Source of the DNA: Candidatus Brennerbacteria bacterium RIFOXYC1_FULL_41_11
GTDB lineage: Bacteria; Patescibacteriota; Minisyncoccia; UBA6257; Brennerbacteraceae
Reading direction: 5' to 3'
Assembly: GCA_001817215.1 (NCBI GenBank)
Contig: MHHX01000019.1
Coordinates: forward strand, 16,302-80,301
DNA length: 64,000 bases
Part shown: positions 2,164 to 37,925 of the stretch, piece by piece
Layout: the number at the start of each line of letters is the position of its first letter
How positions within the stretch are numbered: the first letter of the stretch is position 1
The notes under the pieces: model-generated
Told to the model about the DNA's origin: nothing
Seen by the model: the letters and a program-made list of their open reading frames with translations, nothing else
The model's database searches: none
Program-made: the position numbers and the translations under genes

Positions 2164-3882
2164 ATGAAAACAATCAGGTTATTGAAATTCTTTGTTTTAT
2201 TTTCTTTATTGTATTTTCTCGGTCCCGGCCTTGCCGCCGCGGCCTCTTTATATAGTTCTCCGGCTGTCGGCAATATTTCTTTGGGTCAGACGATCACGAT
2301 TGGCATTTACGTTTCAAGTCCTCATCAGGCAATGAATGCAATCTCGGGATCTTTGAATTTTCCCGCTGATAAGCTGGAGGTTTTAAGTGTTTCAAAGTCG
2401 GGTTCAATTGTTAACCTTTGGGTTCAGGAGCCGAGCTTCTCAAATTCTTCTGGTATGTTGAATTTTGAAGGAATTGTTTTGAATCCGGGGTTTACTGGTT
2501 CTGGCGGTAAGGTGATTTCAATCCAGTTCCGTGCAAAAAATATTGGCACGTCATTGATCTCCTTTTCCAGCGCTTCAATTTTGGCTAATGATGGGAATGG
2601 GACAAATATTTTGTCTGGTTTAACCGGATCGAGTCTTTCCGTGCAGCAACAAGGCAATACAGTGCCCGGTACAGACCCTATTGGCGTTGACCCCTTGACG
2701 CCGCAATCGCCAATAATTATTTCTCAAACTCATCCGGATCAGGAAAAGTGGTACAGTCTTTCTGATGTAAATTTTTCATGGCAGTCGGAACCAGGCGTGA
2801 CTGGCGTCAGGACCCTTTTTGACAAACTGGCCAGATCTCAGCCGACAATCATCAACGATTCTTTAACAAGCGTCAAAAGTGTCAAGGGGATTACGGACGG
2901 GATTTGGTTTTTTCATCTTCAGTTGAAGAATAAATACGGCTGGGGCGGAGCCTCTCATTTTCGCGTTCAAATAGACAAGACTGAGCCGGAGCCATTCTCG
3001 ATTAATTTTCTTGGAGACAAAAATTCGGTCAAGTCTCAACCAAAAATAAAATTTGAGACAGAAGATAAGCTTTCGGGAATTGATTATTATCTTGTTAAGA
3101 TCAATGATCCCGTTGCCGTGAAAGTTTATCCAGAAGAAGTCGGGGGCAGGGAGTATTCTCTGTCTGTTAACGAACCCGGTCGGGGGCTTGTAATTATTGA
3201 AGCCTATGATAAGGCCGGCAACTCGCGGATAGAGACAGAAGATTTTTTCGTTGAATCCCTTGAGCCTCCGGTTTTTGAAGAGTATCCAAAAGAACTGACG
3301 GCGGGAAAGATTTTGGTTGTGAAGGGGAAGTCATATCCTGATTCAGAAGTGATTTTTAAAGTTTTAAAAGACGACAAAGAGATGCCAGTTCGGTCGATTC
3401 ACGCCGGCCCCGACGGCAGTTTCGTTTTTGTTTATGAAGATAAAGTTGCTGCCGGGGTATATAAAGTCAGTGCCAGGACTGTTGCTGATGATAGCGGCCA
3501 GAGTTTTTTCAATGAACCGATTTTGATTCCCGTGAGTCAAGGATTTTTGCAATTATCCGGATTTACATTTCTTAGCGCTATTGGATTTATGGCGCTGGTC
3601 GTCGCCATCTCGTTTTTGGTATTTCATATTTGGCAGCACATCAAGAGGAGATCTTATTTAACCAAGGAGATCAGCGAAGCTAAGACCGTTCTGTTGGAAG
3701 AGTTTAAAAAGCTTAAACGTGAAGCGCAAAAGCAGGTTGATCTGCTTGAAAATTTGAGACAGTGGCGCGAACTGAGTTTTGAAGAAGCGGCGTTGTTGGA
3801 AGATCTCGGCAAAGAGATTGAAACCTTGAGCTCAGCCGAAAATTTGATCAAGAAAGAGATTGAGGATATTAATCAAGTTTGA
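2164..3882 (+). CDS. Membrane-anchored cohesin-like domain protein (paralog of 1197-2135) with extra beta-sandwich domains, a C-terminal TM helix and a cytoplasmic coiled-coil tail
   Basis: Signal peptide. N-terminal LGQTITIGIYVSSPHQAMNAISGSLNFPADKLEVLSV is cohesin-like and aligns with ORF 1197. Internal VVKGKSYPDSEVIF resembles VFSGKAYPGSNVVL of the dockerin protein, so the two share a beta-sandwich. TM FLQLSGFTFLSAIGFMALVVAISFLVF followed by a charged heptad-like tail. Confidence 0.6.
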   Translation: MKTIRLLKFFVLFSLLYFLGPGLAAAASLYSSPAVGNISLGQTITIGIYVSSPHQAMNAISGSLNFPADKLEVLSVSKSGSIVNLWVQEPSFSNSSGMLNFEGIVLNPGFTGSGGKVISIQFRAKNIGTSLISFSSASILANDGNGTNILSGLTGSSLSVQQQGNTVPGTDPIGVDPLTPQSPIIISQTHPDQEKWYSLSDVNFSWQSEPGVTGVRTLFDKLARSQPTIINDSLTSVKSVKGITDGIWFFHLQLKNKYGWGGASHFRVQIDKTEPEPFSINFLGDKNSVKSQPKIKFETEDKLSGIDYYLVKINDPVAVKVYPEEVGGREYSLSVNEPGRGLVIIEAYDKAGNSRIETEDFFVESLEPPVFEEYPKELTAGKILVVKGKSYPDSEVIFKVLKDDKEMPVRSIHAGPDGSFVFVYEDKVAAGVYKVSARTVADDSGQSFFNEPILIPVSQGFLQLSGFTFLSAIGFMALVVAISFLVFHIWQHIKRRSYLTKEISEAKTVLLEEFKKLKREAQKQVDLLENLRQWRELSFEEAALLEDLGKEIETLSSAENLIKKEIEDINQV

Positions 3883-5104
3883 GGCAGTGGTTTTTGAAGA
3901 AAAATATTTTTCTAGATTTTTGAGCATTTCCGGGATTTCCAGAGAGGCTTTGGCTCTTTACTCGATGCATTTTTTGCGTAACTTTGCCGTTGGATTGTTT
4001 GGGATTTTCGTTCCGATCTATATCTTTCAGAACGCCACAAAACCGGTCATTGTTTCGGATATTTTTCTGAGTAATCTTTTATGGGTAGTTTTTTATTTTT
4101 TGGCATATTCGTTTTCAATGTTGATTTCCTCGTTGTTTTTAGGCAACTTGATCTTTAATTCCTTAGGATTTAAGAGATCGATTTTTCTGAGCATTCTGCT
4201 TTTGATCTTTGGGATTTTGTTTTTGGTTTTTTCCGAGAAAGTTTTCTTGTGGTCATTTCTCTCTGCTTTCTTACTTGGAGCTTGTGTTAATTTTTACTGG
4301 ATTCCGTTTCATGTTTTTTTTATTCGTAAGGCTAATCAGGGAGGGAACTATGGCAAGGAAACTTCTTTCCAGATTTTTTTAGGTAATCTTGCTGGCATCG
4401 TTGCACCGTTTATCGCTGGTGTCGTTATTTATTTTTCCGGTTTTGAAAAAGTTTTTACGATTTCGATCGCGTTTCTTCTAGTTTCTTTGTTGCCGCTGTT
4501 TTTTTTCGTTTCTGAAGGATTGCACCGCAATCATGATTTGAAAAAGATCGTTTCTGGTTTTTTGAAAGATCGCAGTAGTCGCCGAGCCTTGATTGGTCTT
4601 GCTGGCGCCGGTGTCGAAGATACGTTGTTCGGGGTATTCTGGCCGATTTTGCTGTTTTTGACTCTTATGGATACGATCAAGATCGGGGCGATTACCACGA
4701 TCTCGACATTTTTGTCTATGGTCGTGGTTCTTTGGGCGGGCATGATTTTTGAAGGTGGAAAGAATAAAAAACTTTTTGAGTGGAGTGCAATTTTTAACAG
4801 CCTACTTTATCTGCCGAGGTTTTTTATCAACTTCGCTTCCGGAATCTATGTTTTGGATATTTTGGATAAACTCAACTCAAAAATTTATGGCGTTGGGCTT
4901 TCTTCAAGCACCTATGATCTGGCGAAGCGTTTTGGAGATTCTGATTTTATCTTGATTCGTGAAGTGGTCTTGCATTTGGGAAGGGTGTTGGCGCTTTTGG
5001 CGTCTTTGGTCTTACTGTTATTTTTCCCCTGGAGAACGATTTTTTTTCTGATTGGAGCGATCTCTTTGCTTAATCTTCTGGTGTTGAAGGAGCATAGCGC
5101 CTGA
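3860..5104 (+). CDS. Multi-pass membrane transporter, MFS-like. The true start may be the internal ATG at 3965
   Basis: Roughly 10-12 hydrophobic helices across 414 aa. The first 35 codons overlap the preceding gene. ATG at 3965 (MHFLRNF) lies just upstream of the first TM. Confidence 0.5.
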   Translation: MRILIKFEAVVFEEKYFSRFLSISGISREALALYSMHFLRNFAVGLFGIFVPIYIFQNATKPVIVSDIFLSNLLWVVFYFLAYSFSMLISSLFLGNLIFNSLGFKRSIFLSILLLIFGILFLVFSEKVFLWSFLSAFLLGACVNFYWIPFHVFFIRKANQGGNYGKETSFQIFLGNLAGIVAPFIAGVVIYFSGFEKVFTISIAFLLVSLLPLFFFVSEGLHRNHDLKKIVSGFLKDRSSRRALIGLAGAGVEDTLFGVFWPILLFLTLMDTIKIGAITTISTFLSMVVVLWAGMIFEGGKNKKLFEWSAIFNSLLYLPRFFINFASGIYVLDILDKLNSKIYGVGLSSSTYDLAKRFGDSDFILIREVVLHLGRVLALLASLVLLLFFPWRTIFFLIGAISLLNLLVLKEHSA

Positions 5105-5168
5105 ACCCTGTTTTGGCAATTCTGGTATAATTAATTAAATAGTGAGCAATTAATTTTTTTGTTTAAAT

Positions 5169-5408
5169 ATGTTTGATCAATTGCCATCTTTGATGGCGAA
5201 TCGATGGGTGATCTTGTTTTTGCTGTCTTGGTCTTTGGTTTGGAAGGGCCTGGCTTTATGGCGTGCCGCCAGAAGCAGCCAGAGAAATTGGTTTATTGTT
5301 CTCTTGGTTGTGAATACCCTTGGGGTTTTGGAGATTTTTTATCTTTTTTTCTGGGATAGCTTCAAACAAATTTCGAAGAAACTTTTTGGTTCGAATAATT
5401 CATCATGA
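5169..5408 (+). CDS. Small two-helix membrane protein, hypothetical
   Basis: 79-aa ORF with two hydrophobic segments (WVILFLLSWSLVW and FIVLLVVNTLGVLEIFYLFFW). Confidence 0.4.
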   Translation: MFDQLPSLMANRWVILFLLSWSLVWKGLALWRAARSSQRNWFIVLLVVNTLGVLEIFYLFFWDSFKQISKKLFGSNNSS

Positions 5409-34542: not shown

Positions 34543-35171
34543 TTTGGGAAGTGCTTCCCCTGATTTTAATATTTTTAGGGTTTGGCAGCGCCCTGATTTT
34601 TTTGGTGAAAAAATCAGAGTCAATTTCTGATGAAGAAGTAAACAAGACCCTCGATAATATCAAGTTGGTTAAGCTGATAAAGATTTTTTATCATCAAAAA
34701 ATCAAGCCGAAACTTCAATCACGCGTGATTGAAGAAAAAACCCTTCTCTTTGTTGAGAAAGAGTTGCGTTGGTTAAGGATTTTAGCCTTGAAGCTGGAAA
34801 ATTGGCTGACTAAACAAATCGACGGCGTTAAAAACTTGCGGGTTAAACCGGAAGCAGATCCGTTATACTGGCTTTCGGTCAGGCGAGATGCTTTAGAGAA
34901 GAAAATCAACGAGGTATTTCAGTTCAGTTTTAATGCCAAATACGATCCTTTTAAAGAAGAAGAGAAGTTGGTAAAGAAGGGTATCGAAGATATTAATGAA
35001 TGGTTGAAAATCGTCAAGTTTCATCTTGAAAGAGACGATATTTCAGAGGCCCGCAGGCTGATTATCCGTTGCTGGAAGATTAATCCTGACGATGAAAAAC
35101 TCAAGCTTTTGCTTGAAAGGTTTCACCTGAGTCTTGAAGAAGACCAGTTGAAAGAGGAAAAACAGAGCTAG
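34539..35171 (+). CDS. Hypothetical N-terminally anchored protein, helical/TPR-like, translationally coupled to tsf
   Basis: N-terminal TM LPLILIFLGFGSALIFLV; 4-nt overlap with the tsf stop. Confidence 0.4.
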   Translation: MIWEVLPLILIFLGFGSALIFLVKKSESISDEEVNKTLDNIKLVKLIKIFYHQKIKPKLQSRVIEEKTLLFVEKELRWLRILALKLENWLTKQIDGVKNLRVKPEADPLYWLSVRRDALEKKINEVFQFSFNAKYDPFKEEEKLVKKGIEDINEWLKIVKFHLERDDISEARRLIIRCWKINPDDEKLKLLLERFHLSLEEDQLKEEKQS

Positions 35172-35211
35172 TTTGTTATAATTCAACTCGGCTTGATATA
35201 ATAAAATGCAT

Positions 35212-35295
35212 GCTGGGATGGTAGAGCGGTCAATTACAAGAGACTGTAAATCTCTCGCCCTTAGGGCTACGCAGGTTCGAATCCTGCTCCCAGCA
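35212..35295 (+). tRNA. tRNA-Tyr (anticodon GTA) with a long variable arm
   Basis: Acceptor GCTGGGA/TCCCAGC, anticodon stem AGAGA/TCTCT with loop CUGUAAA, variable-arm hairpin GCCC-TTA-GGGC, T arm GCAGG-TTCGAAT-CCTGC. Confidence 0.8.
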
Positions 35296-35338
35296 CTCTG
35301 ACTCGCAGGGGCCTTACTCGCTCGGTGCGAGTACTAGA

Positions 35339-35406
35339 GGCCCTATCGTCTAGCCCGGTCTAGTCATGCCAGCGGCAGATCCGCCTTTGGCGGAGACATC
35401 GCCCCT
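35339..35406 (+). other. Degenerate tRNA-Glu-like 5-prime fragment (pseudo-tRNA) fused to a GC-rich hairpin
   Basis: GGCCCTATCGTCTAGCCCGGTCTAG matches the first 25 nt of the downstream tRNA-Glu (GGCGCTATCGTCTAGCCCGGTCCAG) at 22/25, but no anticodon or T arm follows; instead CCGCC-TTT-GGCGG. Confidence 0.4.
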
Positions 35407-35446
35407 TTCACCTGTCAAAATTTTAATTAAAATTGAGTTATCTCAT

Positions 35447-35521
35447 GGCGCTATCGTCTAGCCCGGTCCAGGACGCTGCCCTCTCACGGCAGAAACACGA
35501 GTTCAAATCTCGTTAGCGCTA
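35447..35521 (+). tRNA. tRNA-Glu (anticodon CTC)
   Basis: Acceptor GGCGCTA/TAGCGCT, D arm GTC-TAGCCCGGTCCAG-GAC (E. coli tRNA-Glu-like), anticodon stem CTGCC/GGCAG with loop CUCUCAC, T arm ACGAG-TTCAAAT-CTCGT. Confidence 0.8.
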
Positions 35522-35605
35522 CATGGTTAAAAATTAGGTGGGCGAGCGGCGAATCCGCCAGCTGGCGCACAAGTCCCGTTAGGGCTACTTGACAAAGAAT
35601 CAGTA

Positions 35606-35940
35606 TTTGCTATAATATAAATACAATTTATATAAAACATCCCACGGAACCTTAGGCGAAGTGGGGAAGTGGAGTCACGATCCATGATGTTGCCTCGCAA
35701 AATCGGGGACGGAAGCTGAACCGTAATTAATCCAGCAAGCGGTGTCACTGTAGATTACAACTGGCGTTTACGCTGAGCGTAGTCGAAGCGCGGAGCCGAC
35801 CAAAGAGCCATGACTTTTAATGGAGTTATGGAATGAGGATGGGACCGCGGGAGGTCTCTTTTTTTATAGTCTCTCGTTCCTTGCTTACTACTTTTGTAGT
35901 AATTGAGGAACGAGAGGTTTTTTGATTCTTCGCGGAGTGA
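35606..35940 (+). ncRNA. Candidate structured non-coding RNA of unknown family: a promoter-like TATAAT followed about 320 nt later by two tandem intrinsic terminators
   Basis: TTGCTATAAT at about 35604-35614. No ORF of 60 aa or more on this strand. Terminator hairpin CCTCTCGTTCC...GGAACGAGAGG + TTTTTT at about 35868-35935. Internal repeats of GAGCGTAG and GTAGTCGAAG. Confidence 0.3.
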
Positions 35941-36105
35941 AGAATCAACCCTGAGCGTAGGTAGCCACGCTTGGCGTGGCGTAGTCGAAGGGTGTTTACC
36001 TTTCGTAGAAGGAGGCGTTGATGAGTAAAATACATCGCGCATTTGGAGGGTCTGGCCCTCACGGTTTTCGTCGGGAAAGATTTGATCAGTCTTTCCCGAT
36101 GTGAT

Positions 36106-36180
36106 GGTCTCTGTAGCTCAATAGTAGAGCGTTGCTCTGTGAAAGCAATGGCTGGGGGTGCAAATCCCCTCAGAGACCCA
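36106..36180 (+). tRNA. tRNA-His (anticodon GTG) with an encoded G-1
   Basis: G-1 before acceptor GTCTCTG/CAGAGAC, discriminator C, D arm GCTC/GAGC, anticodon stem TTGCT/AGCAA with loop CUGUGAA, T arm GGGGG-TGCAAAT-CCCCT. Confidence 0.8.
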
Positions 36181-36305
36181 AAATGCAAACTGCTTTGCAT
36201 TTTATGGGATTTGCAAGCCGGAGTGATATTTAACTTGCGTATGGCAAGTTAAATCACGAGGCGGGATCGCGGCAAAATTTTCGGAAGAAAATTTTAGCTG
36301 TGACC

Positions 36306-36324
36306 AAATCCCCTCAGAGACCCT
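36306..36324 (+). repeat. 19-nt perfect direct repeat of the tRNA-His 3-prime end (CAAATCCCCTCAGAGACCC)
   Basis: Identical to 36160-36178; the two copies sit 146 bp apart, like attL/attR cores. Confidence 0.7.
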
Positions 36325-36519
36325 GGGCTGTGGATGTTTTATTTTTCTGCCGGCTTCGCCCCGTTTTACGGGGCTCGTCAACTTACTCCAGCGGTAAGTT
36401 GTGGCCTGTTCTCTCGCCTCGACGGCCCTTCGACTGCGCTCAGGGACCAAGCCCGTCGGGGTTCCGAGAACCAGAAAAACAAAACATCCACAAATCCTAT
36501 TAAACAAAAAATAAAAGAA

Positions 36520-37440
36520 ATGAGCTACAAAAACAAAAAATTGAAGAAGGTCAGATTTAATCAACTCAAAAGGTCGATCGGGTTGATTAAAATTGCTCTT
36601 TGGAAAAAAATCAAAGTTCTTTTGCCGAAAAGAAAGGAGACAGCCGTGTTGAAACAAACAGTTTTTCTGATGCAGGATTTGAGACTGTTGGCTGAACGAG
36701 TCAGGGAGAATAACAAGAAAATTCAAACCTGGGTTGATAAGTATATTGAGGAATGTATTTTGGTTGGTAAACCGGTACAGATCTTGACTCAGTGGTGTTT
36801 TTCGCTTGACTTTGAGGTAAGGTTGCAAAAACAAGGTGGGAAGTTTGCGCCGACAAAAACAGAGCGAGAACTGGTTTTCAAATGGTTCCCGACTGTTCTG
36901 GAGGTTTTCGAAAAGAGGAATGTGCCAATCAATTGGATTGTTACTTTCAATCGATCCTATCTCGACAGCGGCAGGCTGGAACCAGAGACAGAAAGGGCTT
37001 ATCAGGAGATGGTTCAGGGATTGTTTGATGAGGCTGGTTTATCCAGCAAGATTCTTCTTTGTAATTGGGAAGACGATGTTCTTCTGAAAAAACCGGAGCC
37101 AGATAAAAATGTTCTTGAGAATCTGGGAGAATTTTTGGTTCCAGCCGCACTCCAAATTGTTTTTAATCAACACAAGAGCTGGGCCCTGGGAGAAGCCGGG
37201 CTCAAGCAAGCAGATGAAGAACTGTGGCAGGACGTGAAGTTCCAGATTGCTTGTGAAGCTGAAGAAGGCAGGTTCCTTTGCGATTCGGAAGAATCGCCGT
37301 TGAGTGAAGGCAAGTTCATCCTGGTTCCCTTGGAAGTCGCCGAGAGGTATAATCCAACGTTCTTAATTCTTAATCCTGAATTTGAGGAAAGGATTGCTTC
37401 GTTGTTGCCGCCATATCCTTGGCGTATGACTGAAGAATAA
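36520..37440 (+). CDS. Hypothetical protein, 306 aa, no recognisable motifs
   Basis: Start trimmed to the ATG at 36520 (MSYKNKK). The ORF-track N-terminal extension runs through a GC-rich hairpin region and is unlikely to be coding. A strong terminator follows the stop. Confidence 0.5.
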   Translation: MSYKNKKLKKVRFNQLKRSIGLIKIALWKKIKVLLPKRKETAVLKQTVFLMQDLRLLAERVRENNKKIQTWVDKYIEECILVGKPVQILTQWCFSLDFEVRLQKQGGKFAPTKTERELVFKWFPTVLEVFEKRNVPINWIVTFNRSYLDSGRLEPETERAYQEMVQGLFDEAGLSSKILLCNWEDDVLLKKPEPDKNVLENLGEFLVPAALQIVFNQHKSWALGEAGLKQADEELWQDVKFQIACEAEEGRFLCDSEESPLSEGKFILVPLEVAERYNPTFLILNPEFEERIASLLPPYPWRMTEE

Positions 37441-37443
37441 TAT

Positions 37444-37537
37444 AAAAAACCGCCCAAAAGGGCGGTTTTTTACTGCCTTGAAAAAACAACGCCGGTTATT
37501 TTCTCAAGGCACGGGGGTAAGGAGGAAATCCCCCGTG
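37444..37537. terminator. Intrinsic terminator followed by two further stable hairpins
   Basis: AAAAAACCGCCC-aaaa-GGGCGGTTTTTT; then CCTTGAGAAAATAACCGGCG-type hairpin (37475-37508) and CACGGGGG-taaggaggaaat-CCCCCGTG (37510-37537). Confidence 0.7.
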
Positions 37538-37607
37538 CGCATGTAAAGAGCTGTTTTCAATTATAGCATACTTTTAGCCCTTTTCTTGGTGATATAATAC
37601 ATGAAAT

Positions 37608-37925
37608 ATGAAATACTTAATTGTCCTGGCATTTTTAATGAATTTTGTTTCCTGGGGAATGATTTTTTACTTTGTGCCCGAAGTGAACTTTCCTTTTATT
37701 GTGAAGTACAATATTTCTGCCGGTAAAGATATTTTCGGAACAAAGCTTTCGCTGTTCAGCTTGCCGGCAATGGGATTGCTAATTTTGGTGATCAATGCTA
37801 TATTGGCCCTATCATTGATTAAGATTAACAAAGAGTTGTCGACGCTCATTCTTGGAATGACGTGTTTTTTTGAAATTTTGATCGGTCTTTACGCGTGGAT
37901 AACGATATTTATCAACACTTATTAA
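37608..37925 (+). CDS. Small membrane protein (3 TM), hypothetical
   Basis: 105 aa, three hydrophobic helices. Confidence 0.4.
   Translation: MKYLIVLAFLMNFVSWGMIFYFVPEVNFPFIVKYNISAGKDIFGTKLSLFSLPAMGLLILVINAILALSLIKINKELSTLILGMTCFFEILIGLYAWITIFINTY

Follow-up and report, generated by a model that had tools for sequence, protein, structure and literature searches.

The window analysed here is a stretch of 64,000 nucleotides (nt) of contig MHHX01000019.1 from Candidatus Brennerbacteria bacterium RIFOXYC1_FULL_41_11, a member of the Candidate Phyla Radiation (CPR, Patescibacteria). Its GC content is 0.407. At the locus of interest, a leader region precedes a tRNA-His gene, and the tRNA is followed by a folded, non-coding stretch that ends in a second copy of the tRNA 3′ end, by a GC-rich stretch, and by an open reading frame (ORF) for 306 amino acids (Table 1). 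The folded stretch, 36180-36323, is apparently one copy of an undescribed family of structured elements that trail tRNA genes in CPR bacteria.

Table 1. Features of the tRNA-His locus, in window positions
Feature	Position	Strand	Content or basis
Leader region	35589-35922	+	Promoter, T-box-like sequence, terminator
tRNA-His (GUG)	36107-36179, with encoded G-1 at 36106	+	ARAGORN; Rfam tRNA model, 68 bits
Repeat copy 1	36161-36179	+	Spans T-loop C56 to the base past discriminator C73
Hairpin 1 of the tRNA-trailing element	36180-36203	+	AAAATGCAAA-CTGC-TTTGCATTTT; from fold
Guide	36206-36215	+	GGGATTTGCA; 5′ arm of closing helix P1; P1 alignment by covariance model
Conserved core	36217-36304	+	GCCGGAG, hairpin 2, GAGGCGGG, ATCGCGG, hairpin 3, CTGTGAC
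Repeat copy 2 (C56 onward)	36305-36323	+	3′ arm of P1 and 11-nt tail matching the acceptor 3′ strand
GC-rich element, 164 nt	36329-36492	+	Inverted repeat, three hairpins; GC 0.555
tRNA-His-linked gene, 306 amino acids	36520-37440	+	ORF; homologs, locus linkage
Bidirectional intrinsic terminator hairpin	37442-37473	.	Closes the gene
Inverted repeat	37474-37511	.	Repeat search
Inverted repeat	~37513-37537	.	Read from sequence

The repeat, CAAATCCCCTCAGAGACCC, is the final 19 nt of tRNA-His and occurs twice in the 64 kb with 19/19 identity. There was no third match even when 3 mismatches were permitted; shuffled controls gave a mean of 0.01 matches, and two copies were seen in 0 of 100 shuffles. 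An earlier inspection of the letters alone (hereafter the sequence-only reading) had recognised this repeat. It had placed the second copy at 36306-36324, one base off, and had given a spacing of 146 instead of 144 nt from start to start (125 nt lie in between). Its other descriptions held: three hairpins between the copies (folding of 36180-36328, −61.2 kcal/mol, z = −6.4), a GC-rich stretch behind them (36300-36449, GC 0.58) containing the stems GCCCCG/CGGGGC and CAACTTAC/GTAAGTTG, a 306-amino-acid ORF with no recognisable domain, and a terminator with two extra hairpins closing it. The observation is thus confirmed; its interpretation as an integration scar carrying foreign DNA and a cargo gene is partly supported, as detailed below.

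The guide GGGATTTGCA is the reverse complement of tRNA-His positions 54-63, that is, of the T-loop and the 3′ strand of the T-stem. It forms helix P1 with the start of the distal repeat copy, while the core contributes the other two helices, P2 and P3, to a three-way junction; an A bulges out eight nt ahead of the 3′ boundary. The 19-nt repeat is the 3′ arm of helix P1 plus its tail. The loop motif of hairpin 1, AACTGCTT, was seen again in the pre-core sequence of family members at other tRNAs. When 36106-36330 was folded as a whole, the minimum-free-energy structure joined the 5′ half of tRNA-His to the distal copy; the precursor tRNA-His with the element thus has two competing folds of similar energy.

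Units of the same anatomy were found at many other tRNA genes. A metagenome scan with the pattern GCCGGAG...GAGGCGGG...CTGTGAC, with chance hits from GC-rich DNA filtered away, gave a family of at least 69 members. At least about 44 of them sit no more than 200 nt downstream of a same-strand tRNA, with at least 14 isotypes as hosts (among the matches listed: His, Asn, Arg, Leu, Ala, Met, Ser, Val, Cys, Trp, Glu, Gln, Gly and Lys), and the orientation of the element in these tRNA-linked members is that of the tRNA. The elements are about 110-170 nt long and non-coding. Behind the host tRNA come, in this order, hairpin 1, a terminator hairpin or both, the tRNA 3′ half in inverted copy, one A, the core (61-90 nt) and a direct copy. 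When the tRNA 3′ half is written as X, the general layout is X, loop, reverse complement of X, A, core, X′. The order within the core is GCCGGAG, hairpin 2, CGAGGCGGGGUCGCGG, hairpin 3, bulged A and YCUGUGAC. The inverted and direct copies pair as P1, closing the junction with P2 and P3.

The inner ends of the two copies are fixed. In every member with a repeat detected over at least 8 nt, the direct repeat starts at tRNA C56. Its length is 19 nt where CCA is not encoded and 21 nt where it is encoded, with a trailer extension of 1-11 nt in some members; overall it measures 19-30 nt, or 63-80 nt in tandem units, with a variable outer end. The inverted copy stops at tRNA position 54, 1 nt ahead of the core. 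Among the matches listed, its length was 20 nt or more in 25 of 44 tRNA-linked members, and it often runs into the trailer. Each member's repeat matches the tRNA of its own genome. In many members the direct copy has decayed while the core is intact.

The distribution of the family is sporadic and multi-copy. Whole units stand in tandem at two loci (L047 and L048; such labels denote loci compared here). The covariance model R1, described below, detected 2-3 copies on each of six contigs (L080, L091, L064, L061, L082 and L121). On a 5.6-kb contig, L097, the element lies behind 4 of 5 tRNA genes (Arg, Arg, Leu and Val) in one or two copies each, at 1-300 and 4539-5341; the stem sequences of these copies diverge and the fold is unchanged. 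Several variants were found. The core may follow a terminator hairpin that takes in the tRNA 3′ end (L062, L079, L097, L152 and L153), one subtype is upstream of tRNA-Ser, and in L163 the core is within a broken tRNA-Lys with an intact copy alongside.

No linked protein family was detected: at 67 family loci, the ORFs up to 4 kb away clustered into housekeeping families only, each at no more than 5 loci, and no integrase recurred beside members within this distance. No match in Rfam 15 overlapped 36180-36500 even at E up to 10; the whole window at gathering score and 35100-37700 at E up to 10 gave only tRNAs and generic terminator look-alikes. Two pattern scans of 2.9 million viral contigs yielded no genuine copy, as six matches of the first scan were without the family core motif by inspection and four of the second failed the covariance model. 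No published description of a tRNA-trailing element of this kind was found in the literature searched.

Covariation was tested on 30 minimal (61-nt) cores. In the three-way junction, with the order P1, AAA, P2, GGG, P3, 88.5% of the cells were paired, compared with 74.1% in shuffles. The covariation score was 0.408, compared with 0.157 in shuffles (reached by 0 of 500) and at most 0.121 in slid controls. Pairing in P2 and P3 was 97-100%, 11 pairs had changed on both sides, and an R-Y pair covaries beside the conserved bulged A. One G.U pair is invariant and another position is kept as G.U or A-U; the fold therefore belongs to the tRNA-sense strand. The model R1, built without the window sequence, had its sole match in the window at 36206-36314 (43.3 bits, E = 3.6e-12) and 61 matches in 99 loci.

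P3 (36266-36304 in the window) has a conserved bulged A eight nt from its 3′ boundary and CGC on its 5′ strand, and superficially recalls group II intron domains V/VI; beyond the bulged A and CGC, no other intron features are present in the core. Hammerhead, kink-turn and box C/D motifs and group II intron domains V/VI were compared by eye, and their fit was limited to single features.

Comparison of the tRNA-His locus among relatives revealed both filled and empty sites. The gene begins 0-40 nt behind the tRNA in relatives. In the closest relative, L043 (76% amino acid identity for the gene), tRNA-His is 22 nt ahead of the gene, with ATGAGTTACAAAAAC at that distance, whereas in the window the distance is about 340 nt. 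Deletion of 36180-36323 and 36329-36492 leaves a 32-nt A-rich spacer like that of L043. The difference in length and the matching residual spacer indicate that two small units were inserted. Among species-level loci, tRNA-His is 0-135 nt upstream of the gene in 24 of 31, and the tRNA end, ...GACCC, often directly abuts ATGAGTTAYAAAAA (also in L007 and L010). Only two of the gene-linked tRNA-His loci, the window and L017 (45% identity for the gene), carry the element. In L017 it has the same layout behind a different tRNA-His of its own: hairpin, GTGGGGAATCGA, AAGCCGGAG, hairpin, CGAGGCGGGGTCGCGG, hairpin, CTGTGAC, the tRNA 3′-end copy CGATCCCCCTCGGCGACCCC, GT and the ATG of the gene. There GTGGGGAATCGA complements the T-arm of L017 itself, and the repeat likewise matches its own tRNA-His. 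The L031 contig has a weak, 26-bit R1 match on the minus strand, away from its tRNA-His. In the window, the element and an unrelated 164-nt GC-rich element split a conserved, otherwise contiguous tRNA-His/gene pair.

On balance, we lean towards regarding the members of the tRNA-trailing family as non-autonomous mobile elements with an RNA structure, which target tRNA genes and leave them unbroken. Mobility is suggested by the patchy presence, by the perfection of the repeats even in non-conserved trailer (+1 to +11 nt), and by the tandem units. The element is predicted to be co-transcribed with the tRNA, and its sense-strand fold, as RNA or in single-stranded form, would be recognised for propagation. 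On landing at a tRNA gene, it would make copies of the local tRNA 3′ half, one in each orientation. Upstream, the tRNA gene would stay intact, and the inverted copy would be neutralised by pairing with the direct copy rather than invade the real tRNA.

Several points weigh against mobility. No linked transposase, recombinase or reverse transcriptase was found, and no excised or intermediate form was seen. The element was present in 20 of 20 contigs of the source organism's population, with no polymorphism. The collecting pattern fixes three core motifs, so that core conservation and family limits are biased. We know of no mechanism that makes a plus/minus/plus triplication of a target with inner ends fixed at 54 and 56. 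The L097 copies vary in their stems yet keep pairing, which looks like long residence under structure selection and favours a host-beneficial cis-acting RNA.

Such an RNA is a serious rival explanation, although we consider it the less probable one. As a trailer of the tRNA, the inverted copy would have two possible partners, the real tRNA 3′ half and the downstream decoy, and the junction core, on binding a protein or ligand, would choose between them and thereby control tRNA folding, 3′ processing or termination; in the window, it would also govern read-through into the downstream gene. The strong compensatory covariation and conserved junction nucleotides are in its favour, as are the strand-specific pairs (the invariant G.U and the position kept as G.U or A-U), the constant co-orientation with the tRNA, the two competing folds of the precursor tRNA-His, and the contigs on which nearly every tRNA has an element, with stems that are all different. 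However, repeats that are perfect even in non-conserved trailer and units in tandem speak for recent copying rather than selection. The absence of the element from L043 and from most tRNA-His loci implies that it is dispensable, and the decoy has decayed in many members despite an intact core.

The proposed mobile element has partial counterparts among known systems. Like MITEs (miniature transposable elements with inverted repeats) and the repetitive extragenic palindromes REP and REPIN, it is a small intergenic unit that lacks both coding capacity and a linked gene, occurs in multiple copies and forms hairpins. It differs from them in that its inverted repeat comes from the local host tRNA, its orientation is fixed by the tRNA, and its G.U pairs make the fold strand-specific. 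It does not qualify as a MITE: although the family is multi-copy and lacks coding capacity, the inverted repeat on its flank comes from the host tRNA 3′ half and differs per site instead of being a constant terminal repeat, and there is no short target-site duplication of fixed length. A conserved RNA scaffold beside a target-matching segment is also found in the bridge RNA of IS110 and in the omega/reRNA of IS200/IS605 TnpB. Here, however, the element neither contains nor adjoins a gene for a recombinase or nuclease, and the matching segment varies per site, as if the site had been copied into it and not selected by it.

Tandem inversion duplications arise by snap-back template switching and have a plus/minus/plus arrangement with hairpins at the junctions. 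The family resembles them in the plus/minus/plus order of one segment and in its junction hairpins; in contrast to them, it always has the 61-90-nt core at the second junction, and its inner ends are fixed at 54/56 over dozens of loci. Run-off of complementary DNA, with repeats bounded by the mature tRNA 3′ end, was also considered and dropped, as the inverted copy usually reaches into the trailer.

An intron-like insertion in the T-loop is improbable. In this explanation, splicing would join tRNA positions 1-55 to the distal copy of 56-76 and remove the first 3′ half and the core as the intron. The minimum-free-energy fold of 36106-36330, in which the 5′ strands of the acceptor stem and the T-stem both pair with the distal copy, would agree with this, as would the pairing of the guide with exon-like sequence in the manner of intron guide sequences, the core inside the broken tRNA-Lys of L163, and the position of the bulged A in P3. 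However, the upstream tRNA is complete without splicing, and in-silico splicing gave a tRNA in only 1 of 21 members without an upstream tRNA, a member that an intact copy adjoins. This result ruled out an obligatory T-loop intron. In addition, no group I or group II match was obtained in Rfam, and the core has merely 61-90 nt. Group II introns are reported to be absent from complete Patescibacteria genomes, and the group I introns in Patescibacteria tRNA genes sit at position 35/36 in the anticodon loop, reach lengths of hundreds of nt, have counterparts among the Rfam intron models and need splicing (PMC13011429). The family shares with these group I introns the phylum, a tRNA-tied structured RNA and a segment complementary to the tRNA; it differs in its uninterrupted tRNA, its short core and the lack of any Rfam counterpart.

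The integrase attachment (att) scar of the sequence-only reading, an attL/attR remnant in the tRNA-His T-loop and 3′ end of an island deleted almost completely, is the least probable explanation of all. Some tyrosine integrases use the T-loop sublocation of tRNA genes, and, as with their islands and prophages at tRNA T-loops and 3′ ends, we see a direct repeat from the T-loop to the tRNA 3′ end, an intact tRNA, and empty (L043) as well as filled sites. However, the 125 nt between the copies contain no integrase or other ORF, no integrase recurs within 4 kb of family members, and none of the viral contigs scanned carries the core; moreover, the inter-repeat DNA is a conserved folded unit common to at least 14 isotypes in unrelated genomes, with a repeat that matches each genome's own tRNA, starts at C56 and varies at its outer end, and with an inverted target copy, which att recombination does not yield. 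This is, in essence, what the sequence-only reading had named as its refutation, namely a 19-nt repeat that is part of a conserved structured RNA. What stands of the earlier suggestion of a mobile element is that an insertion took place, as the empty site in L043 shows, and that its fallback of a miniature element was near the truth; a deleted integrase island it is not.

Sequence between the tRNA-trailing element and the gene belongs to another insertion. In the 164-nt element, a 21-bp inverted repeat (36329-36349/36472-36492) closes a junction of three hairpins (z = −5.75). The element is missing from L043, L007 and L010, and blastn found no homologs among 171 loci. CCCTTCGACTGCGCTCAGGG in its third hairpin has inverted occurrences at 35773 and 35975. 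The GC-rich motif CTGAGCGYAGTCGAAG, with 5 matches in the window against 0.41 expected, is found three times within 700 bp, at 35773-35788, 35975-35990 and 36428-36443 (minus strand). The two upstream copies fall in segments missing from all six aligned relatives and apparently represent another small-insertion family. Structured spacers of 130-200 nt also lie between tRNA-His and the gene in L044 (118-274) and L045 (2213-2420), at 59-61% identity. They have a closing inverted repeat of 15-17 bp and CCAGCG-type hairpin loops like those of the window element; they have no sequence homology to it and share only a 45-nt piece with each other.

In total, at least four lineage-specific small insertions were found in 35760-36492. 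The region is an insertion hotspot for small structured elements, as the sequence-only reading had proposed for integration. The GC-rich stretch forms a small element of its own and does not represent foreign DNA bearing the gene. Further upstream, the first 25 nt of tRNA-Glu are duplicated 108 nt before it with 92% identity (35339-35363 and 35447-35471), and the sequence past this fragment resembles that past the real tRNA-Glu (35368-35385 and 35542-35559). Apparently the tRNA cluster contains a second partial duplication of a tRNA, one that lacks the element core.

The gene itself is native in composition. Its GC content is 0.428, compared with 0.410 ± 0.027 for the genes of the window, and its codon-usage distance ranks 18th of 39. 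Neither a foreign origin nor the role of a cargo gene fits these values and the linkage to tRNA-His across species, and the protein is no orphan: 84 homologs were found in Parcubacteria/Patescibacteria, with 40-76% identity. The protein had no Pfam, NCBIfam or PDB-profile match. Its predicted fold is a Rossmann fold like that of class I aminoacyl-tRNA synthetases, and resembles PvcA (3e59), cyclodipeptide synthases (for example 6y4b, bound to Phe-tRNA) and these synthetases. The family differs from PvcA and the cyclodipeptide synthases in invariant residues of its own (Q91, C93, E99, R101, W183, E184, C245, E246 and E249).

An alternative start, GTG at 36647 behind a strong AAGGAG ribosome-binding site, would give 264 amino acids, suggesting a core protein of this length. 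This second start is about 43 codons downstream, and homologs without tRNA-His begin there (36520-36650 in the window). Members abutting tRNA-His have a Lys-rich N-terminal helix. In many relatives (L014, L015, L020, L024, L029, L031 and L034, around position 3000) the ATG of the gene follows the tRNA-His discriminator without a gap, and tRNA 3′ processing would therefore leave a leaderless mRNA.

The leader at 35589-35922 is probably the control region of an operon of tRNA-His and the gene. It begins with a perfect sigma-70 consensus promoter (35589-35616, TTGACA-16-TATAAT with TG), has a T-box-like sequence, GGATGGGACCGCG, at 35837-49 (general form GGAUGG(G/A)ACC(G/A)CG), and ends in a terminator (stem 35871-35916 and T-run). 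Similar leaders were found in L010 (3700-3990), L045 (1770-2030), L018, L020, L029 and L031. GGAUGGGACCGCG followed by a terminator is kept in 7 loci, and CGGGAG is able to pair with the terminator 5′ strand. The UGGG of the leader suits discriminator C73; three relatives have UGGA. The Rfam T-box model (RF00230) matched neither the window, with E up to 10, nor any of 20 related loci, with the gathering score. A candidate CAC (His) specifier was seen in the leader by eye only.

A further conserved stretch separates the leader terminator from tRNA-His (36021-36104; L010 4018-4112, L043 1-110 and L045 2056-2139). It can be read as a small ORF (MSKIHRAFGGSGPH...) preceded by the ribosome-binding site GGAGG, and it also forms hairpins with compensatory changes, one of them directly 5′ of tRNA-His. 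With its synthetase- or cyclodipeptide-synthase-like predicted fold, its linkage to tRNA-His and the T-box-like leader, the gene family is a testable candidate for a new His-tRNA-dependent enzyme.

For the tRNA-trailing family, we tentatively raise the possibility of a new class: either a protein-less mobile element, trans-mobilised or ribozyme-like, that copies the tRNA 3′ half, or a switchable decoy trailer RNA. The repeats of such elements mimic att sites and would be miscalled in annotation as integration scars or borders of genomic islands. If the family is mobile, its handling of the target would be new, as an essential gene is spared, the closing helix is built from copies of the target, and no enzyme is linked. 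If it is functional for the host, it would be the first trailer-encoded device that steers tRNA folding and processing by decoy pairing. CPR genomes are tiny, yet they keep and apparently spread a folded unit of 110-170 nt behind many tRNA genes. Either reading, if true, would mean that CPR bacteria have a tRNA-gene-specific system without a described counterpart.

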